A stretch of DNA of 64,000 nt. Source: Clostridia bacterium (GTDB lineage Bacteria; Bacillota; Clostridia; UMGS1840). The position numbers were made by a program, and so were the translations under genes. Under the pieces are notes generated by a model that was given only the letters and a program-made list of their open reading frames with translations, made no database searches and was not told the DNA's origin. This document shows, one piece after another, positions 4,561 through 58,312 of the stretch (the first letter of the stretch is position 1; each line of letters starts with the position of its first letter). The DNA lies in NCBI GenBank assembly GCA_045638525.1, contig JAZUBQ010000019.1, positions 8,418 through 72,417 on the forward strand, written 5' to 3'.

Positions 4561-4591
4561 GTCATAAATGAGGACAGCCTCTCATAAAAAT
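4561..4591 (+). promoter_or_regulatory. Putative sigma-E promoter of the spoIIIA operon
   Basis: TCATAAA-N14-CATAAAAA resembles the sigE consensus; spoIIIA is sigE-dependent in characterised spore formers. Confidence 0.5.
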
Positions 4592-4618
4592 ATAAAAAAC
4601 AAGGGAGGTGTTATCCAA

Positions 4619-5488
4619 ATGAGCCGTTCTCTTCCTCAATTACAAAACCTATTGCCGCCGTTATTAGCTCCGTACATCACCAAAACAACCGAAGAAATTC
4701 GGTTCCGGCGCAATCAACCGGTCATTGTGAGAGAATCAAACAAAGAAATCATCACACCGCTCATTTGCACCAATACTCTGCAAGAAGACCTGATTGACAA
4801 GCTGACAAAAAGTTCCTTATACAGTTGTTTTGACAGTATCGCGCAAGGATTTTTAACCATCGAGGGTGGACATCGGGCAGGCATTTGCGGAACCGGTGTC
4901 TACGAAAACGGAACGTTGGTATATGTAAAAGATATTTCTTCGGTCAATCTCCGGATTGCCAACGAAAAGAAAGATTGTGCCAAGCAGTTGTTTGAGCAAG
5001 TAATTTCGGAGTCTCAGATTCCGGGCATCCTGTTGATTTCTCCGCCCGGATGCGGAAAAACCACTCTGCTAAGAGATCTGATCAGACAACTTTCCAATAA
5101 AATTCCAAAAATACGCATATCAGTGATTGATGAACGAAGCGAAATTGCAGGAGTACATATTGGAGAGGCACAAAATGATTTGGGAAAACGGTGTGATATC
5201 TTAAACGGATATACAAAATCCGACGGCATCCGCCACGCCATCCGTGCTCTGTCACCGGATGTGATTGCTGTCGACGAAATCGGAACTTCAAAAGACGAGG
5301 ACAGCCTGCTGTATGCGGCTCAGGCAGGTGTTTGTATTTTGGCAACCATTCACGGAAATTCTGACGGAAATTTTCAAAAGAATATCCGTCGTTTGACCCG
5401 TGAACATATCTTTGACTACTATGTTTATCTCTCAAATAAAAATCCTGATAATCGCATTGAGCGAATCGTTTCGGTAAAGGAGGGATAA
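4619..5488 (+). CDS. spoIIIAA: Stage III sporulation protein AA (ATPase)
   Basis: EEIRFR, GFLTIEGGHRAGICG, SPPGCGKTTLLRD, VIDERSEIA, PDVIAVDEIG, ATIHG; GGGAGGTG RBS. Confidence 0.95.
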   Translation: MSRSLPQLQNLLPPLLAPYITKTTEEIRFRRNQPVIVRESNKEIITPLICTNTLQEDLIDKLTKSSLYSCFDSIAQGFLTIEGGHRAGICGTGVYENGTLVYVKDISSVNLRIANEKKDCAKQLFEQVISESQIPGILLISPPGCGKTTLLRDLIRQLSNKIPKIRISVIDERSEIAGVHIGEAQNDLGKRCDILNGYTKSDGIRHAIRALSPDVIAVDEIGTSKDEDSLLYAAQAGVCILATIHGNSDGNFQKNIRRLTREHIFDYYVYLSNKNPDNRIERIVSVKEG

Positions 5489-5489
5489 A

Positions 5490-5984
5490 ATGCTTCACTT
5501 ATTTGGCATTTCTTTCATTTTAACAGGAGATGTTTTGTTGACAAGATATCTGTTTCATGAAAAAAATAAAAAACTGGTCTGTGTTCTGGAGACGATGACA
5601 TTTCTTCGTGAACTCACCTGTCTGATGTATGAGTTCAAACTCCCTTTGGATGAAGCACTCAAGCGACAAGCCGACAACGGAGGTTTTTTTGAAGCTTTGT
5701 GGGAACAAATCCAACAAAATCCTCACCAAAACATCCGGTCTGCTCTGACAGAAGCCGTACAACAACTCCCCTTCCCCGAAAAAGAAACAAAAAACATTGT
5801 CATTGAATACTTAAAAAATCTCGGAAAATCGCCCAAAGAACAAACCACCGAACATTACGAAATCGTGTTAAAACACCTTAAAATGCTGTACACTGCAAAA
5901 AAAGAAGAATTTCATAAAAGCAACAAACTGTCGGCGGGTGCAATCTACGGAATCAGCCTTGCCGTCGCAATATTATTATGGTAA
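5490..5984 (+). CDS. spoIIIAB: Stage III sporulation protein AB
   Basis: Operon position; N- and C-terminal TM segments; PLDEAL and LGKS motifs. Confidence 0.8.
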   Translation: MLHLFGISFILTGDVLLTRYLFHEKNKKLVCVLETMTFLRELTCLMYEFKLPLDEALKRQADNGGFFEALWEQIQQNPHQNIRSALTEAVQQLPFPEKETKNIVIEYLKNLGKSPKEQTTEHYEIVLKHLKMLYTAKKEEFHKSNKLSAGAIYGISLAVAILLW

Positions 5985-5997
5985 GAGGGATGTAGCA

Positions 5998-6192
5998 ATG
6001 AACGTAGAACTGATTTTCAAAATAGCCGCTATCGGCATTATTGTTGCAATTTTAAATCAACTGCTGACCAAATCCGGTCGTGACGAACAAGCCACTATGG
6101 TTACACTTGCCGGACTTGTGGTTGTTTTGGTGGTCATTGTGAAAGAAATCGCATATTTATTTGACACCATTAAAGCGCTGTTCAATTTGTAA
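5998..6192 (+). CDS. spoIIIAC: Stage III sporulation protein AC
   Basis: MNVELIFKIAAIGIIVAILNQLLTKSGRDEQA...LFDTIKALF, the canonical SpoIIIAC pattern. Confidence 0.96.
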   Translation: MNVELIFKIAAIGIIVAILNQLLTKSGRDEQATMVTLAGLVVVLVVIVKEIAYLFDTIKALFNL

Positions 6193-6205
6193 GAGGTGAA
6201 GCACA

Positions 6206-6592
6206 ATGGATATTCTGGCAAAAATTATAGGAATTGCGCTCATCGGCACAATCCTTGCCATTGTTTTAAAAGAAAGAACGCCGCAGTATGCTCTGGCTGT
6301 TTCTTTGGTCACGGGAATCTTAATTTTCACGCTGATTGCCACAAAGCTAGAATCGGTCATCCAACAAATGAAAGCTATCGTGTCCGAAGCCGGAATGGAA
6401 TCGGAAACAGTCAATTTGGTACTTAAAATTTGCACAATGGGAATGGTCTCAGAATTTTTTTGTAATCTGATTGCGGATGCCGGAGAAGTTGCTATTGCTA
6501 AAAAGGCTGAACTTTCAGTCAAAATCATTATGTTTTTGATGATTCTTCCTCTGATGGGAAAGGTTGTGGATATGGTATGGTCTTTGTTTTGA
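6206..6592 (+). CDS. spoIIIAD: Stage III sporulation protein AD
   Basis: IIGIALIG...LK...PQYA and DAGEVAIAKKAEL..K motifs. Confidence 0.92.
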   Translation: MDILAKIIGIALIGTILAIVLKERTPQYALAVSLVTGILIFTLIATKLESVIQQMKAIVSEAGMESETVNLVLKICTMGMVSEFFCNLIADAGEVAIAKKAELSVKIIMFLMILPLMGKVVDMVWSLF

Positions 6593-7662
6593 CAGACACT
6601 CGTAAAAACGCAATCAAAAAATTCATTCTGATACTGATCCTTTTACTATCCCTTCCCACCTTCGCAAATGCAAAAGAACCGGAAAATCCCACGCAAAAGA
6701 TTCTGTCACTTGCCCAGGACAGTCCGTCATATCAACAAAACCAAGATGACAAGCCGTCGTTTGCAAATCTATTAAACCAAACAAAACAGCTGTTTTTCGG
6801 AGAATTAAAAGCAATGCTTTCCAGAGTAAAAATGTTGTTTATCGTACTGATGTTTTTGGGAATCAAAGGCTGTATGAATTTTCCGCTCAGCTTAAACAGA
6901 ACCGTCACCTTAGGCTGTATGGCTCCAATTTTATACCTGACAAGTGAAATTTTTACAGAGCTTTCCAATGTGGCTACAGATATGATAGACAAACTGTCTC
7001 AATTTGTCTATCTGATTATCCCTATGCTCACCGGGCTGATTGCCAACGGAGGACGCATGCTCAGTTCCGCAAAAAGCACCTATTTTATTCTGGGATTTAT
7101 GAACATACTGATATATTTAATCAATCACATCTTTGTTCCGGCAATTCTTTTATACTTCATATGCTCGGTGATGTCAGCTTTGGTAGAAAAAGATTATTTT
7201 TCGGCTCTCAAAAAAGCACTTCTGTCACTCAACAAAACTGCACTTCCTCTGTGCATCGGGATTTTCACCACATTGTTAACCGTTCTTACCACCGTATCCA
7301 AATCCTCTGATGCACTTACCCTTCAAACCGCAAAAATGGCACTTGGAAACTGCATCCCCTTTCTGGGCTCTGCACTGTCTGATTCAGGAGAGTATCTGAT
7401 TCAGACAGTTTCACAAATCAAAGCTCAGGCAGGTCTGGCAGGCATTGTGGCATTATGTTATATTTTTCTGGTCCCCATTTTGAAAATTCTGTGCGGAATT
7501 TTAATTTTGAAAGGCCTCACGGTTTGTGCCGGTTTTTTATGCGAAGAAACCGTGACCGAATTTTACGACAACGCTCAAACCGCTCTGGGAATGTTGGCAG
7601 GAATCACAGCAACGGCATCGGTGATTGCTATTTTGGGAATTATGATTCTGATGGGGCTATAA
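6577..7662 (+). CDS. spoIIIAE: Stage III sporulation protein AE (polytopic membrane protein)
   Basis: Operon position; TAKMALGNCIPFLGSALSD motif; multiple TM helices. Confidence 0.88.
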   Translation: MVFVLTDTRKNAIKKFILILILLLSLPTFANAKEPENPTQKILSLAQDSPSYQQNQDDKPSFANLLNQTKQLFFGELKAMLSRVKMLFIVLMFLGIKGCMNFPLSLNRTVTLGCMAPILYLTSEIFTELSNVATDMIDKLSQFVYLIIPMLTGLIANGGRMLSSAKSTYFILGFMNILIYLINHIFVPAILLYFICSVMSALVEKDYFSALKKALLSLNKTALPLCIGIFTTLLTVLTTVSKSSDALTLQTAKMALGNCIPFLGSALSDSGEYLIQTVSQIKAQAGLAGIVALCYIFLVPILKILCGILILKGLTVCAGFLCEETVTEFYDNAQTALGMLAGITATASVIAILGIMILMGL

Positions 7663-7675
7663 GAAAGGAACTTCT

Positions 7676-8122
7676 ATGCTGTCACTAATTATGAAACTAA
7701 AATCTGTGGTTTTTGTGATACTACTCTGCGAATTTTTAAAAGAATTACTTGTTGGCGAAAAATTCAAACAGTATATTCAATTTGCGGTCAGTCTTTTTCT
7801 GTTTACTTTTTTTCTTTCCGCATTTTTACACACGGATTTTTCATTCGTGCCATTATCTGAGCTGATGGTTTCGTATGAAAGTGAAAATCTGCTTCTTCAG
7901 CAATACGAAACGCAAATTGAAACTGCTGTTTCCGAAGAATTGTCCAAAAACCAATGTTCGTTCCAAACAGTCAGCGTTACCCTGTCGGATTCCTACGAAA
8001 TTAAAAACATCCGCATTATCTCGGAAGAAGATCCGAACAAAATTCATTCTCTGTTGAAAGGAGACGTCCCCTATGAAGTGGTACACCCGACTTCTGAAAT
8101 TCCTGCCCAAAAATCTTACTGA
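7676..8122 (+). CDS. spoIIIAF: Stage III sporulation protein AF
   Basis: Operon position; two N-terminal TMs around FKQYIQF, then a soluble domain; divergent and short. Confidence 0.7.
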   Translation: MLSLIMKLKSVVFVILLCEFLKELLVGEKFKQYIQFAVSLFLFTFFLSAFLHTDFSFVPLSELMVSYESENLLLQQYETQIETAVSEELSKNQCSFQTVSVTLSDSYEIKNIRIISEEDPNKIHSLLKGDVPYEVVHPTSEIPAQKSY

Positions 8123-8603
8123 TAAAAAAAACAAACTGATTTTAATTCTTTTCCTTGCGGGATTTCTTTGTCTGTTAGTTCCGCAAAATCAAAAAAAAGA
8201 GGAATCTTCTCCTGTGGAAGTGAATATGATAAACCATCAGAATCACACAAAAAAAGAGTTGGAAAAGCTTCTCACAAAACTGACGGGCGTTACGGTCAAA
8301 ATAGTCTTTACATACAAGGACACCGGAGATATCAGCGTAGTGACCGAAGAAAGTTTATCGGTAGAAACCAACCCAAACGACGGAACATCAAATATGCAAA
8401 AAGACACCAAACCGATTACCGACAGCAATAAAAATATTATGATAAAAAACCGTCAGCAACCAACCATCAAGGGGGTATGTATTTTTTATTTCGGAACGTA
8501 TCAAAAATCAGTGGAAGATCTGCTGTATCGGGCTGCCAAAAGTGCCTTAGGTGCAGAAATTCACACAGTAGAAGTTATTTTTAAACCAACTGAAAGGAAC
8601 TAA
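8073..8603 (+). CDS. spoIIIAG: Stage III sporulation protein AG
   Basis: N-terminal TM; LEKLLTKLTGV and PTIKGV ring-building motif segments. Confidence 0.8.
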   Translation: MKWYTRLLKFLPKNLTDKKNKLILILFLAGFLCLLVPQNQKKEESSPVEVNMINHQNHTKKELEKLLTKLTGVTVKIVFTYKDTGDISVVTEESLSVETNPNDGTSNMQKDTKPITDSNKNIMIKNRQQPTIKGVCIFYFGTYQKSVEDLLYRAAKSALGAEIHTVEVIFKPTERN

Positions 8604-8608
8604 TTATT

Positions 8609-9115
8609 ATGTTGTTATTACAAAAACGAAAAGTAGCCGCTGTTATTTGTACTGCTCTATTGGCAACTGCAGGTGTGGTCAACTATATCAATCATACCGA
8701 AACGGAATCCGTCTCATTGTCCTTACCTCCTGCAGATGAAAGTTATGATGAAGAAACAAACTACGGAGAAGCAAAATACGTTTCTCAGGAAATCGACTTA
8801 GAAAAAAACAGAAGCGAAGCAGTGGCACTGTTAAAAACCGTATCGGAAGATGAAGGCGCCGACCCTGTGAAAAAAGCAGAAGCACAAGGGGAAATCATCC
8901 GAATCGCCAAAGATATGGAAAAAGAAGCTGTGGTGAAAGAAATTTTATCGGAGAAAGGGTTTTCGGATGTCAGCGTCTATTTAAATTCTCCGCAGGCAAC
9001 CGTCAGCGTAAAATCAGATGGATTAACCGATCAACAACTGGCACAAATCCGTGACACTATGCGAAATGATGCAAATATTGAGCCCCAGAATCTGAAAATA
9101 ATTGAAGCAAAATAA
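8609..9115 (+). CDS. spoIIIAH: Stage III sporulation protein AH
   Basis: N-terminal TM; YGEAKYV, E.ILSEKGFSDVSV, LT...AQIRD and IKII-like C-terminus. Confidence 0.88.
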   Translation: MLLLQKRKVAAVICTALLATAGVVNYINHTETESVSLSLPPADESYDEETNYGEAKYVSQEIDLEKNRSEAVALLKTVSEDEGADPVKKAEAQGEIIRIAKDMEKEAVVKEILSEKGFSDVSVYLNSPQATVSVKSDGLTDQQLAQIRDTMRNDANIEPQNLKIIEAK

Positions 9116-9120
9116 TGAAC

Positions 9121-9149
9121 TTGTGATATTTTAAACTATTTGCTACAAT
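9121..9149 (+). promoter_or_regulatory. Sigma-A-like promoter upstream of the small ORF/portal pair
   Basis: TTGTGA-N17-TACAAT with extended -10 TG. Confidence 0.5.
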
Positions 9150-9197
9150 ACCTCATGAGTAGTTCGGAGTTTACTATAAACGATATGAGGTGAAACC

Positions 9198-9443
9198 ATG
9201 AGCACAACCAATCAGGAAAAGCAGGAATATTTAGAAAAACGCAGATATTTTTACTCCGTTACCCCCACCTATTACGGAAACGGTAATTTTGCTGCAAGAA
9301 AAAAGAAAGAAGCAGAACAGGAAAAACGTGCAAAAACTTTGTTAAAGTATCTTAACGAAGCAAAAAAATCTGCTATCAAACGAGGAATGTACAACCAAAA
9401 ACCCTATCAAACTGTAGTATCGGAGGCAGAGAAAAATGTCTGA
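9198..9443 (+). CDS. Small basic hypothetical protein (81 aa), coupled to the portal-like gene
   Basis: GAGGTG RBS; stop overlaps the next start by 8 nt. Confidence 0.7.
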   Translation: MSTTNQEKQEYLEKRRYFYSVTPTYYGNGNFAARKKKEAEQEKRAKTLLKYLNEAKKSAIKRGMYNQKPYQTVVSEAEKNV

Positions 9444-11289
9444 AAATCTGGCAAAATTTGTCTGCCACGAATTTAGTGAACGTTCGGAAAAGCGAAATCA
9501 ACTGGAATTAAAATGGAACTTAAATATCAATTTTTTAAACGGCAACCAATATTGTGATGCCGATTATAATCAAAAAAAGATTTTTTCCATCGAAAAACTG
9601 TATGATTATCAGGAAAGAGCTGTTTACAACAACATTGCGCCGATTATCGAAACCCGTATCGCCAAGCTGTCGGATGTGGTTCCCCAAATCGGTGCAATCA
9701 CAAACAGCTCGGATTTAAACGACATTTCCAATGCAAAAATCTCGACGGCAGTTTTAAAAAGCATTCATAAACAATTAAACTTCCCTGAAAAAATAGCACA
9801 AGCAGTTTCCATTTCCGAAATGCTGGGCACCGCCTTTTATAAAATTATCTGGCAAAAAGATTACGGAGAATTTTTATATCAGTTCGGTGAGGAAACTGTG
9901 AAAACCGGCGAGGTAGACACCTTAATTTGTACCCCGTATGAAATTTATCCGGAAAGCCTGTATGTGGAACAAATTTCCGAACAAAGAAGCATCATTCATG
10001 CTCATCCCTATCATGTGGATGAAATCAAAGAAAAATGGGGCATCGAAGTCAAACCCCATCGGGTCAATTTATTTTCAATGACAAATCTCACCAACATAAC
10101 CGGTGGTCTTGGGTGGACAAGCACTGCCGAAAGTGTGTGGCAGGATGTCAAAGACAACTACGATATCGTATTGGAATACTACGAAAAGCCATCGAAAAAG
10201 CATCCCGATGGCAGATTGCTGATTGTGGCATACTACAATCAAACTTTACTCTATGAAGGTCCCCTCCCCTACATCAACGGAAAATACCGCACCCGCGGAT
10301 ATCCCTTTGTAAAACAAACCGCCATCACACGCCCCGGATGTTTTTACGGAATCAGCATCATTGAACGTCTGATTCCCATTCAAAGAGATTATAATGCCAT
10401 TCAAAACCGTATTAACGAATATTTAAATCGTGCGGCATTGGGAATCCCCGTCATTGAAGACGGCAGTGTGGATGTTGACAGTCTGGAATACTACGGAATG
10501 CCACCGGGAATGCCTATTGTATACGGCAGAGGAAGTGAGCCGCCCCGTTTTATGGATACGCCTGCACTGCCTTACAGTTTCTTATCGAAGCAAGACCGTC
10601 TGGAGGAAGCCTTCATTTCTGTTTCCGGCATTTCCGAATTAACACAATTTTCCAGAGCCCCTTCTAATGTCACTTCGGGAACTGCTTTGGGAATTTTAGC
10701 ACAACAGGATGATAACCGTCTGACAGTCAGCGCAGAAAACATCCGAAATGCTGTTTTGGAAGTAGCCAAACAATGGCTCAGACTCTATCAGCAATTCGCT
10801 CTGTTTGAACGAATGTTAAAATTAGGTGGCGACGAGCTTGATAATGCACTCATTCGTTGGAATCAAAGCAATTTATTGCCCGAAAGTCTGGAATTAACCA
10901 CCCAAAATGAAATTGAAAATTCTCTGGCAGTCAAACGAGAACTCATTCGGGAATTATATGCCATGGGACTGTTTACCGACCCGAAAACAGGCAGAATCAC
11001 AGCTTCGGCAAAATCCAAAATTTTGTCTCTGTTAAAAATGGGGGACTGGGAAAATCAAATGGAGCTGGAAACCTTAAATTCCACTCGTGCAACCCGTGAG
11101 AATTTAAAATTAAGAGAAGGCATTTGTTGTTCCGTAAAAACAAGAGATCATCACGAAATTCACATAGAAGAACACACCAAATATCTTCTGACAGGTGAAT
11201 TTGAAGAACTGGAAAAATCAAATCCCACAATTTCAGAATTGTTTGAGCAGCATTTAAAAGAACACGAAGCATATCTGTGCAAAGCATAA
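9436..11289 (+). CDS. Phage portal-like protein (P22/podovirus-type portal)
   Basis: 617 aa. Segments WNLNINFLNGNQY, NNIAPIIE, GTAFYKIIW, PYEIYP, YPFV...FYGISIIERLIPIQRDYN, SGISELTQ...NVTSGTALGILAQQD and QWLRLYQQF follow the P22-like portal pattern; GGAGG RBS. Confidence 0.75.
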   Translation: MSENLAKFVCHEFSERSEKRNQLELKWNLNINFLNGNQYCDADYNQKKIFSIEKLYDYQERAVYNNIAPIIETRIAKLSDVVPQIGAITNSSDLNDISNAKISTAVLKSIHKQLNFPEKIAQAVSISEMLGTAFYKIIWQKDYGEFLYQFGEETVKTGEVDTLICTPYEIYPESLYVEQISEQRSIIHAHPYHVDEIKEKWGIEVKPHRVNLFSMTNLTNITGGLGWTSTAESVWQDVKDNYDIVLEYYEKPSKKHPDGRLLIVAYYNQTLLYEGPLPYINGKYRTRGYPFVKQTAITRPGCFYGISIIERLIPIQRDYNAIQNRINEYLNRAALGIPVIEDGSVDVDSLEYYGMPPGMPIVYGRGSEPPRFMDTPALPYSFLSKQDRLEEAFISVSGISELTQFSRAPSNVTSGTALGILAQQDDNRLTVSAENIRNAVLEVAKQWLRLYQQFALFERMLKLGGDELDNALIRWNQSNLLPESLELTTQNEIENSLAVKRELIRELYAMGLFTDPKTGRITASAKSKILSLLKMGDWENQMELETLNSTRATRENLKLREGICCSVKTRDHHEIHIEEHTKYLLTGEFEELEKSNPTISELFEQHLKEHEAYLCKA

Positions 11290-11374
11290 AATATCAAAAA
11301 AAACGGTATAAATGGATTCCATTGGGAATATAATGAAATAGAAACAATAAACTGACAGAAAGGCGGTTCCAAAA

Positions 11375-11614
11375 ATGGAAAAGCTTCTTAAAAAAATATC
11401 TGCATTATTTTCCCGGCCAAATGTATCTCCCACACTGGATGCATTGATGGAAGCCAAACGTGAAGTTGAAATCGCATGGATTAATTTCAATGAAGCAACC
11501 AAAGATGAATACGTAGACATTGCGATTATGAATTTAAATCTTGCGAAGAAAAAACTGGATGTTGCAATTAAAGAATCAAAAGAAGAAACCAACATTCAGG
11601 TCGCAGGACTATGA
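11375..11614 (+). CDS. YaaL/DUF2508 family protein
   Basis: AKREVEIAWINFNEAT..EYVDIAIMNL..AKKK pattern typical of DUF2508. Confidence 0.75.
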   Translation: MEKLLKKISALFSRPNVSPTLDALMEAKREVEIAWINFNEATKDEYVDIAIMNLNLAKKKLDVAIKESKEETNIQVAGL

Positions 11615-11700: not shown

Positions 11701-11937
11701 ACCGCTGACAAACTCGTTCTACCGCAAGTAATAAAATAAAGAGAACACTTTCGTGCAATTAAATAACAAATAATATACACAGAAAATGGTGCGGTTTTCA
11801 TCACAAAACCGCACCATTACTTACTTTCTTCGAATTTGAACTCTACCGTACCAGTGTACGCCGACGAATTCAAATTCGAAAAATATACCTTCGTTTCTCA
11901 GTGTCTGTCTAGCTTGATGACTTTGTCATCAAGCTGA
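11698..11937 (+). mobile_element. MITE-like structured repeat, family A, copy 1
   Basis: About 240 bp, homologous to the reverse complement of 56228-56467; imperfect terminal IRs; flanked by a duplicated terminator. Confidence 0.75.
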
Positions 11938-11939
11938 AT

Positions 11940-11978
11940 AAAAAAGGAACTGCTTTTTTTTGCAGTTCCTTTTTTCTT
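11940..11978. terminator. Intrinsic terminator, direct-repeat copy 2 (probable target duplication)
   Basis: AAAAAAGGAACTGC-T8-GCAGTTCCTTTTTTCTT matches 11659-11696 apart from loop length. Confidence 0.8.
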
Positions 11979-31424: not shown

Positions 31425-32057
31425 ATGGAAATGGAATTAACAAAAAAGCAGAAGCTGATCTATGACTTTATCAATGATTTTCAAAATAAAAACGGCTATC
31501 CACCCACTGTACGGGACATTTGCATCGGTGTTGGTCTTCGCTCTACTGCAACCGTCTTCACTCATTTAAAAAACCTGGAAGAAAAGGGCGTTTTAAACAA
31601 AAGTTCTTCCAAAAACAGGGCCATCTCAGTCGTCAAAGAATCTGCCATCAACCAGGTGGAACCCCAAGATGCCAAAGCATCCGATGTTTTTGAAATTCCT
31701 CTTCTTGGTAAGGTGGCGGCAGGCAGTCCTATCTTAGCTGTGGAAAATATCGAACGCACTTTTCCGTTGCCTCCGGATATGGCAACCAATCAGGATATGT
31801 TTATGCTCAGAGTGCAAGGGGAAAGCATGATTAACGCCGGCATTTTAAACGGAGATTTAATCATTGTTTCCCGTCAGCCAACTGCTGAAAACGGAGAAAT
31901 GGTAGTCGCTATGATTGACGGAGAAGCCACGGTCAAAACCTTCTATAAAGAAAATGGCTATTTTCGTTTACAACCCGAAAACGATGCTATGGAACCTATC
32001 ATTGTGACCCAACTGACCATTTTAGGTAAAGTTGTGGGACTGTTCCGAAAATATTGA
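31425..32057 (+). CDS. lexA: SOS repressor LexA
   Basis: GYPPTVRDI..GVGLRST, VAAGSP cleavage site, GESM (Ser), ATVK (Lys). Confidence 0.97.
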   Translation: MEMELTKKQKLIYDFINDFQNKNGYPPTVRDICIGVGLRSTATVFTHLKNLEEKGVLNKSSSKNRAISVVKESAINQVEPQDAKASDVFEIPLLGKVAAGSPILAVENIERTFPLPPDMATNQDMFMLRVQGESMINAGILNGDLIIVSRQPTAENGEMVVAMIDGEATVKTFYKENGYFRLQPENDAMEPIIVTQLTILGKVVGLFRKY

Positions 32058-58112: not shown

Positions 58113-58135
58113 CTCAAAAAAAGCAGTTGAAAGCT

Positions 58136-58312
58136 TTTCTCCGTCCTTTTGCCTGAGAGATTAACCGTAACATCGGTTTTGCACCTTCGGCATCCTTTGG
58201 TTTCCGTAGAAACCGGACTTCTCCGGAGCGCTATCCGTTTGCAGTCTTTACTTTAAAAGCACCTGAGAGAGTTACTCCTTCGGCAAGGCACACGCCTTTC
58301 TCCTGCATCCTT
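58136..58312 (-). promoter_or_regulatory. Tandem glycine riboswitch
   Basis: Two aptamers, each GGAGA...CCGAAGG.G.AA...CTCTCAGG...GAC, upstream of an AGCS symporter. Confidence 0.93.

Follow-up and report, generated by a model that had tools for sequence, protein, structure and literature searches.

A solitary phage portal gene beside the spoIIIA operon of uncultured gut Clostridia is probably one part of a domesticated, dispersed head-and-packaging system

We analysed a 64,000-nucleotide stretch of DNA (the window) from a Clostridia bacterium (GTDB lineage Bacteria; Bacillota; Clostridia; UMGS1840; GenBank assembly GCA_045638525.1, contig JAZUBQ010000019.1, positions 8,418 to 72,417), in which a phage portal gene stands by itself directly downstream of the spoIIIA sporulation operon. 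Our results suggest that this portal is probably one third of a domesticated, vertically inherited head-and-packaging system of podovirus origin that resembles a gene transfer agent (GTA), with a terminase operon and a capsid operon elsewhere in the genome as the other parts. The original prediction, made from the letters of the window, had offered two accounts of the gene: a dispersed GTA-like head system, or a portal co-opted for sporulation. The first gained support when genes for the terminase, scaffold, capsid and portal vertex turned up at two further loci of the window's own genome (G000); the second did not, given these cognate partners, a promoter of the portal's own and a sister genus that lacks the gene.

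The identity of the portal is supported by several profiles. It matched Pfam P22_portal (PF16510) with an E-value of 1.3e-15 (57.4 bits, cut-off 26.1), Pfam SU10_portal (PF23899) at 3e-9 (36.3 bits, cut-off 30) and PHROG 156, 'portal protein', at 5e-29 across residues 6-497, and a profile built from the portal and 26 relatives matched the solved portal 8jov at 1.2e-5. These matches bear out the uninterrupted portal-like open reading frame (ORF) that had been noticed in the window, as well as its host-like composition: the GC content of the gene (0.37-0.47) falls inside the range of its neighbours (0.34-0.49). The short upstream partner and strong ribosome-binding site (RBS) described at the same time were also confirmed. 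The overlap of this partner, orf81, with the portal gene is preserved in all ten aligned species, as is its RBS, and orf81 is predicted to be translationally coupled to the portal and to have arrived together with it. An ORF of this type, of 80-85 amino acids (aa) and with 15 invariant residues, is present in nine of nine assessable relatives, with a ratio of non-synonymous to synonymous differences (pN/pS, Nei-Gojobori) of 0.46. Profile searches of orf81 gave no Pfam, PHROG or NCBIfam match. We also considered whether it corresponds to the small ORF of about 100 aa that precedes the portals of relatives, and rejected this because profile-profile similarity was nil (hhalign probability 0.5%).

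The partners of the portal were found with proteins of TerS-TerL-portal-...-MCP modules (MCP, major capsid protein; TerS and TerL, small and large terminase), which in the genomes G008, G005 and G012 form prophages (loci L024-L026) with distant portals, 34-39% identical to the one in the window. Searched against G000, they matched contig C2 (TerL, 41-51% identity) and contig C23 (a scaffold-like ORF, the MCP, and ORFs of 129 and 597 aa). The first of these, locus 2, is flanked by host genes for a B12-binding protein and tRNA-Arg. All eight full-length TerL sequences (G000 and seven relatives) agree fully in what we take to be the Walker A, Walker B and acidic nuclease motifs; next to the last of these, G010 has K-N in place of K-D. 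The final gene of this locus, t178, resembles a sigma-like regulator: it matched PHROG 36, 'transcriptional regulator', at 2.6e-10 and PHROG 248, 'activator', at 3e-7, and Sigma70_r4 (1.3e-4) and the NCBIfam sigma70-ECF superfamily (1.1e-5) below their cut-offs. Locus 3 lies among host Iso_dh, Aminotran_5 and 2-Hacid_dh genes (leuB-like and serC/serA-like) and encodes the capsid. Gene order, together with one lead from an atlas, makes p176 a probable adaptor and p597 a probable tail hub. The latter is about 25% related to proteins of 585-761 aa at the same place in phages L024, L025, L140 and L149, and the proteins that resemble it in the atlas are viral and hypothetical, with Phage_stabilise on 17% of the members of one cluster, a lead only. 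Sequence and profile searches of the PDB with p597, p176 and the MCP returned nothing meaningful.

The three loci are on separate G000 contigs of 110-232 kb, amid host genes (spoIIIA in the case of the portal), and from contig sizes and positions any two of them are at least 61 kb apart. When 3,437 ORFs taken from 84 viral or prophage loci were searched against G000, the only regions matched from many of these loci were TerL (69 loci), the portal (83) and the capsid cluster (74). Within the window the portal alone was matched in this way. The earlier statement that the window holds no other phage genes therefore stands for this phage family; other phage families were not screened there.

We searched 40 related genomes for the portal, comprising ten other species of the genus, five of the sister genus and 25 more distant ones (the family has 16 species genomes in total). 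Portal orthologues 80-91% identical to that of the window were found in all ten other species of the genus, none of them broken; the sole apparent stop, in G010, is a natural stop three codons early. The domesticated-type portal was thus present in 11 of 11 genus genomes, G000 included, and in none of the five sister-genus or 25 more distant genomes; among these 30, G033 had one portal copy, in a clustered arrangement. Named records of the genus (L055-L058), possibly from the same genomes as those counted here, show the solitary arrangement too and were not counted again. The capsid cluster is likewise present in ten of ten species, with MCP orthologues at 87-91% identity in nine and a cut copy in G005. 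Full-length TerL orthologues (84-93%) occur in seven of ten species and a further copy, in G002, is cut by a contig end, which brings the operon to eight of ten. In each genus genome the portal, TerL and MCP genes are on different contigs, gene order inside the TerL and capsid loci is retained across the genus together with the host flanks, and all three loci are intact wherever they were assembled.

The genes of all three loci are under purifying selection. Mean pN/pS (Nei-Gojobori) was 0.15 for the portal, 0.13 for TerL, 0.11 for the MCP, 0.29 for the scaffold and 0.26-0.36 for p176, p129 and p597, compared with 0.08, 0.15 and 0.07 for the host genes NAPRT, MgtC and serC. Synonymous divergence (dS) is saturated across the genus, at 1-2. 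For the closest pair, at dS 0.5-1.0, the ratio of non-synonymous to synonymous substitution rates (dN/dS) was 0.054 for the portal, 0.043 for TerL and 0.095 for the MCP, and it ranged from 0.04 to 0.19 across twelve genes that are open in up to 11 species. The portal had been judged to be maintained rather than decayed, and its intact state in ten of ten species, at a dN/dS far below 1, agrees with that judgement. It is hardly credible, given twelve open genes at saturated dS, invariant catalytic motifs and conserved promoters and RBSs, that a decayed prophage left inert loci behind which have stayed intact by chance, even if such remnants would fit the lack of integrase, replication and lysis genes, a TerL with no canonical start codon in two species, a TerL operon that was not found in G008, and the position of this operon between tRNA-Arg and either tRNA-Ser or tmRNA genes, which are typical phage integration sites.

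Selection is matched by co-divergence. The same four well-supported groups were recovered in a concatenated tree of seven host genes and in one of six phage-like genes. The genus portals group as a single clade in a tree of 47 portal rows (SH-like approximate likelihood-ratio support, SH-aLRT, 99; stem length 0.42), and this clade is not nested among viral rows or same-genus prophages. Its sister group consists of three unplaced proteins (P0024-P0026) at 64-68% identity, beyond which identity is at most 46%; a scan of metagenomes for the context of this 'mid' clade returned just one relative, at 44%. The system appears to have been gained by the ancestor of the genus, whose members are uncultured gut Clostridia, and by all indications it has been inherited vertically since. 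Synteny, dN/dS and tree congruence, the checks suggested for the gene at the outset, thus all pointed the same way, and none of the findings that would have spoken against it (absence or decay in close relatives, nesting among recent phages, dN/dS near 1, a misassembled junction) was made.

The history of the portal locus itself can be read from its borders. spoIIIAH is directly upstream of it in nine of nine assessable genus loci, with one contig ending at the portal; orf79 is downstream in ten of ten genus genomes (69-82% identical), and MgtC, NAPRTase and RmuC genes, convergent to orf79, come next in nine of ten. Because the junctions are identical in the assemblies of nine of the ten other species (the tenth being the contig that ends at the portal), misassembly is excluded. 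At two sister-genus loci (L216 and L217) an orf79 homologue of 40% identity directly follows spoIIIAH with no portal between them; at a third (L218) no orf79 homologue adjoins spoIIIAH. This adjacency indicates that orf79 is a host gene and that the promoter, orf81 and portal form a 2.2-kb insertion. The label yaaL/DUF2508 that had been given to orf79 had to be dropped, as the protein showed no DUF2508 (YaaL) match even at E≤5 and none in NCBIfam; it also has no detectable relative in 160 related loci. The terminator expected behind it was seen in our scan as two hairpins. The gaps on either side of the insertion are 82 bp (spoIIIAH to orf81) and 85 bp (portal to orf79), and the scan found no terminator-like hairpin in the former, as had been reported.

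This arrangement bears on the second original account, in which sporulation had recruited the portal, perhaps as a channel that works with SpoIIIA-SpoIIQ and is expressed by read-through from spoIIIA. The portal is co-oriented with spoIIIAH, sits close behind it in every assessable species and, with no terminator seen in between, might be reached by spoIIIA transcripts. Vertical descent alone accounts for the conserved adjacency, however. The portal's cognate partners (TerL, scaffold, MCP and vertex genes) are equally constrained at loci that have no sporulation neighbours, the portal has its own conserved promoter, common to the capsid operon, and such a portal is absent from the sister genus and the 25 distant relatives except for the clustered copy in G033. 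A component of the SpoIIIA complex would accompany the spoIIIA operon in sporulating relatives, which the portal does not do, and we regard a sporulation channel as highly improbable. At 80-82% identity in most species, the portal is also better conserved than spoIIIAA, AB, AE, AF and AG (29-60% in the same species). As a separate observation, spoIIIAB, AE, AF and AG are just 29-59% identical between most genus species and the flanking enzymes 86-95% (window 4568-9115 compared with L013-L022); low spoIIIA identity beside such well-conserved flanks indicates that spoIIIA is fast-evolving here.

We next considered how the three loci may be regulated. The sigma-A-like promoter predicted upstream of orf81 proved to be conserved in position across ten species: its GA[AC]CTTG and -10 (TTGnTAnnnT) are retained at the same place in every species aligned. 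The capsid operon shares this element. At both loci, in ten of ten species each, GA[AC]CTTG is followed 20-21 nt on by a weak -10-like hexamer, which reads TAyryT in the portal operon and CATACT in the capsid operon, and the capsid promoter was not called by a sigma-70 scan. The composite motif has 14 matches in the genome, of which only two, those at the portal and capsid operons, head phage-like genes. Neither operon has a LexA box of the kind found at the TerL operon; a LexA half-site in their promoters was considered and rejected, since GAAC occurs there with no GTTC partner.

The TerL operon has a promoter that agrees with the consensus at 12 of 12 positions and includes a TG. Directly after it, in nine of nine species, comes the LexA-box-like sequence GCGAACATTTGTTCG, with one or two changes in G000, G010 and G001. 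In G000, AGAACATTTGTTCG precedes recA, and its core is common to the TerL-operon box and the boxes of lexA; G000 has 21 copies of the core AACATNTGTT. We take the TerL, recA and lexA boxes to resemble the Cheo-type LexA box of Firmicutes. The lexA gene, whose product is presumed from the similarity of these boxes to repress the TerL operon, happens to lie in the window, and its presence there is coincidence. Among 58 relatives, eight have a LexA-type box within 1.5 kb upstream of TerL. A search for the wider LexA regulon gave too few sites with a strict box pattern and too much noise with a loose one. Together, these motifs would fit a cascade in which LexA controls the TerL operon and, through t178, the portal and capsid operons, so that on the best reading of the sequences the podovirus-derived particle system would be SOS-wired. 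No sequencing run recorded as RNA contains this stretch, and six DNA runs contain only small shares of its sampled words.

Table 1. Features of the portal locus, other window features and the two partner loci. Coordinates without a contig name are those of the 64-kb window; L numbers denote extracted loci; aa, amino acids.
Feature	Location	Strand	Description
spoIIIAA-AH	4568-9115	+	host spoIIIA operon
spoIIIAH	8609..9115	+	Pfam SpoIIIAH 7.9e-21; final gene of spoIIIA operon, upstream border of insertion
Promoter-like element of orf81-portal operon	9117..9149	+	GAACTTG; TTGTGA-17-TACAAT (9121-9149); TG before -10
GAGTAGT	9157..9163	+	just 3' of -10; invariant in ten-species alignment
RBS of orf81	9187..9193	+	GAGGTGA in 10/10 species
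orf81	9198..9443	+	81 aa, lysine-rich; upstream partner of portal, overlapping it (ATGnnTGA)
portal	9436..11289	+	617 aa; P22/SU10 type by profile matches; ORF uninterrupted
orf79	11375..11614	+	79 aa; host gene, downstream border of insertion; outside the phage-derived set
Terminator-like hairpin	11785..11818	.	14 pairs, bidirectional (scan)
Second terminator-like hairpin	11940..11975	+	with T run (scan)
Three LexA-box-like sites	~31219, 31256, 31294		upstream of lexA
lexA	31425-32057	+	Pfam LexA_DNA_bind 5.4e-18; ~20 kb from portal
Glycine riboswitch aptamer	58131-58236	-	Rfam RF00504, 50.7 bits
Locus 2 (L027)	G000:C2 ~43.2-46.0 kb		zn68, TerL, t95, t139, t178, in this order
zn68	locus 2, first gene		68-aa zinc-ribbon ORF, CxxC...CxxC
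TerL	locus 2		large terminase; Terminase_6N 2.3e-13, Terminase_6C at cut-off, PHROG 2 9e-33
t95	locus 2, after TerL		95-aa ORF
t139	locus 2		139-aa small-terminase-like ORF; weak GP3_package 1.5e-4, 22.3 bits, cut-off 29.4
t178	locus 2, final gene		178-aa sigma-like regulator; PHROG 36, PHROG 248, weak sigma matches
Locus 3 (L028)	G000:C23 ~117.1-121.8 kb	-	scaffold, MCP, 129-aa, 176-aa and 597-aa ORFs
Scaffold-like ORF	locus 3, first gene		177 aa
MCP	locus 3		major capsid protein; NCBIfam capsid_maj_Podo 5.4e-63; PHROG 14242 6e-52
p129	locus 3, after MCP		129-aa ORF
p176	locus 3		176-aa ORF, probable adaptor
p597	locus 3		597-aa ORF, probable tail hub

Two further features of the capsid operon were observed. 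Just after the MCP gene, inside the operon, is a terminator-like hairpin with a T run (L028 10910-10926, minus strand), which may act as an attenuating terminator that sets the ratio of capsid to vertex proteins. A leader of about 50 nt that lies 3' of the operon promoter is nearly invariant in ten species (L028 12770-12870, minus strand); a structured RNA in this leader was rejected, the pairs being invariant with no covariation and the folding energy ordinary (z-score +0.44). No Rfam family matched at any of the three loci.

In G000 the TerL operon lies between tRNA-Arg(CCT) and tmRNA (L027 3925-4001 and 14402-14751), and in three relatives (L031, L033 and L035) tRNA-Ser(GGA) takes the place of tmRNA. 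The stretch downstream of the operon is variable and not conserved, which an old integration site would fit. Between the B12-binding gene and the operon, G000 has an insertion of its own (L027 4796-8908) that is absent from the loci of eight relatives and encodes a 106-aa ORF and a 1,258-aa protein with Listeria-Bacteroides repeats and ricin-type lectin domains.

Relatives of the portal point to its podovirus origin and to the linkage that the genus has lost. We found at least 579 portal relatives in species genomes and fetched 80 loci, of which the 76 outside the genus are 36-43% identical and come mostly from uncultured Clostridia and Christensenella-like metagenome-assembled genomes. In 72 of these 76 loci the MCP gene follows the portal start at 2.3-3.8 kb, while the remaining four contigs end before that, and in 46 TerL is upstream of the portal, a linkage that is broken in G000. 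A further 149 viral contigs from IMG/VR encode portals 33-44% identical, with the genes contiguous on contigs of 35-65 kb; on two of them (L140 and L141) the order is portal-scaffold-MCP-p129-p176-p597. Among 50,697 deposited phage genomes, the best matches were 23% identical for the portal, 28% for the MCP and 30% for TerL (podoviruses of Arthrobacter and Microbacterium), and t178 and p597 had no match there. The same portal, MCP and TerL families are therefore shared with P22/SU10-type podoviruses and the uncultured Clostridia podoviruses of IMG/VR, in which the genes are contiguous; here they are split over three loci. A functional or recent prophage would be contiguous and patchily distributed and would carry integrase, replication, structural and lysis genes, as opposed to three loci among core genes, and the true prophages of this family (L024) differ from the dispersed loci accordingly.

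Two species of the genus, G008 and G005, each hold one related prophage (L024 and L025, portals 37-39% identical) with its own TerS and TerL. Such phages give some ground for a reading in which the host keeps the structural genes against or for related mobile elements, with their subunits serving as decoys or poisons or their capsids supplying satellites. We consider this very unlikely: none of ten proteins tested matched a PADLOC defence model except for one weak match (0.0038), and interference would need less than a complete, seemingly co-regulated set of head and packaging genes whose terminase has both nuclease and ATPase intact.

Some arrangements among the relatives were also noted in their own right. 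Many of the 36-43% relatives (L059-L134, for example L075, L066, L093 and L114) are compact clusters of about 10-13 kb in the order TerL ... portal-scaffold-MCP-~105aa-~189aa-~505aa-~300aa, with host-like genes within a few kb; on account of these flanks the clusters look like GTA-type operons, not 40-kb prophages. Five other Clostridia genomes of 0.8-1.4 Mb (G041-G045; L220-L224) hold portal, scaffold and MCP genes in a compact cluster away from any TerL (L096, L071, L095, L108 and L085), and each has one TerL elsewhere, solitary among unrelated ORFs, 55-58% identical, with an ATG start and no LexA box. An unlinked terminase is thus not unique to the genus. Among the 36-43% relatives, some sets of species have flanks in common (L071/L096 and L085/L095/L108).

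Several observations weigh against a GTA-like head-and-packaging system. There is no clear small-terminase gene, the GP3_package match of t139 being below the Pfam cut-off. The genomes of G008 (92% complete) and G005 (77% complete) yielded neither t178 nor a domesticated-type TerL, and in G008 the syntenic site beside the B12-binding gene (L215, G008:C19) is assembled with no TerL operon; in both species the portal and capsid genes are intact nonetheless (the MCP copy of G005 being cut). In G000 and G010, TerL has no ATG, GTG or TTG ahead of Walker A (L027 9215-9640). In nine of nine species an RBS (AAGGAGG or AAGGGGG) is followed after 8-10 nt by ATC AAA, the only candidate start, and TerL is read in the -1 frame relative to the zn68 ORF that it overlaps. 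With no canonical start codon before Walker A, TerL would start at ATC or be a frameshift fusion, and since ATC is the sole candidate start in G000 and G010 its level of expression is uncertain. The five proteins t178, t139, t95, zn68 and orf81 had no detectable relative in the 160 related loci and may or may not come from a phage. The role of t178 and control by LexA are predictions from sequence motifs. Finally, searches with the proteins of same-genus prophages and of the 84 loci found no tail fibre, receptor-binding, holin or endolysin gene; the tail, adsorption and lysis genes of a GTA are thus missing from the set, and divergent ones may have escaped the search.

On the other side, the properties of a GTA that concern descent and the inability to package itself are in place. 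The structural genes are chromosomal, phage-derived, vertically inherited and under purifying selection. No integrase gene of this phage family was found in G000 in the 84-locus search, the set has no replication genes, and with loci at least 61 kb apart, compared with viral contigs of 35-65 kb, its own full gene set should be beyond what it can package. Control by a host regulator may be indicated by the LexA-box-like site that overlaps the TerL promoter in nine of nine species. Under the mechanism that we propose, DNA damage would remove LexA from the box overlapping the start of locus 2's consensus promoter; t178, encoded last in that operon, would then activate the operons with a TGAaCTTG-N20 promoter, those of the portal and the capsid; procapsids would assemble on the portal and the terminase would fill them with DNA. 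Because no particle can carry the whole system at this spacing, the packaged DNA would be host DNA. Our data show the identities, dispersal and conservation of the genes, purifying selection, co-divergence with the host and conserved regulatory motifs; expression, packaging, release and transfer are predicted, and the particle would be most like a GTA or a PBSX-like particle, which may serve gene transfer, killing or another end.

To our knowledge very few GTAs are known, and that of Faecalibacterium prausnitzii (FpGTA, 2026) is the only podovirus-like one described. FpGTA, as presented in PMC12946183, is podovirus-like and genus-wide, with two operons 125 kb apart, and its particles and 8.4-8.9 kb of packaged DNA were shown experimentally. 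It is the closest described system on a comparison of gene content and organisation. Both have a chromosomal podovirus-like TerL, portal, scaffold and MCP conserved across a gut Clostridia genus, and both occupy more than one locus, without replication genes. In FpGTA, however, TerS-TerL-portal-scaffold-MCP form one 10.5-kb operon, whereas here TerL, portal and capsid are at three loci; its second operon carries tail fibre, receptor-binding protein, holin and endolysin genes, whereas here no fibre or lysis genes were found; and its particles have been demonstrated (PMC12946183), whereas those of the present system are predicted. The same source reports GTA-like packaging in Christensenellaceae (PMC12946183). 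Our literature searches for 'gene transfer agent' with 'Christensenellales' found only that paper and an unrelated preprint, and those for 'portal protein' together with 'spoIIIAH' found no paper. RcGTA of Rhodobacter capsulatus and relatives differs in being siphovirus-like and alphaproteobacterial. Its head-tail genes are in one cluster of roughly 15 kb. The likeness is in a multilocus 'genome', host regulation and vertical inheritance (PMC5026251). LexA affects RcGTA production indirectly, through CckA, according to PMC6363796, whereas here a LexA-box-like site lies on the promoter of the terminase operon itself.

PBSX of Bacillus subtilis offers another comparison. The NCBIfam PBSX-family terminase model matched here at just 5.9e-8, far below its cut-off, and the two systems are unrelated as far as tested. 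PBSX, a defective prophage, occupies one uninterrupted stretch, brings its own lysis genes and has a long contractile tail. It is nevertheless a Firmicute, SOS-inducible system, and its factor Xpf, called sigma-like in PMC4243946, drives late genes; in the present system the SOS wiring is predicted. PBSX packages host DNA in 13.4-kb fragments, by the account in PMC12946183. A rival reading without a transfer function is that the same domesticated particle serves PBSX-like killing or altruistic lysis, disposal of DNA or release of extracellular DNA, or ends as a tail-less DNA-filled capsid. The LexA box and sigma-like regulator resemble those of PBSX, and our searches with the proteins of the 84 loci and of same-genus prophages found no fibre, receptor-binding or lysis gene. 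Against this, PBSX is contiguous and long-tailed, and here the head, portal-vertex and packaging genes are split three ways; fast-diverging tail fibres may also have been missed, and our data do not distinguish killing from transfer. We judge a particle with no role in transfer unlikely.

A bolder extension of the GTA-like reading would tie the system to two host programmes at once: SOS, through the LexA box and sigma-like activator, and sporulation, through read-through from spoIIIA. The mother cell would then release DNA-filled capsids, and its lysis would account for why no lysis genes were kept. On this view podovirus-derived GTAs with unlinked terminase genes would make up a widespread, undescribed family in small-genome gut Clostridia, with this genus as its most fragmented member. 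We regard this combination as a long shot.

Read as a GTA-like system, the three loci would be a second, independent-looking podovirus-like case, in uncultured spore-forming gut Clostridia, with an unusually fragmented architecture in which TerL, portal and capsid each have a locus of their own among core genes. They offer a testable circuit, from a LexA box to a sigma-like regulator to a shared promoter motif. More generally, a phage structural gene that looks 'solitary' can belong to a complete dispersed system, of a kind that prophage finders seeking contiguous elements miss. The solitary TerL genes of five other small-genome Clostridia suggest that such systems are common in gut Clostridia, and dispersed systems may underlie the GTA-like packaging signals of gut viromes.

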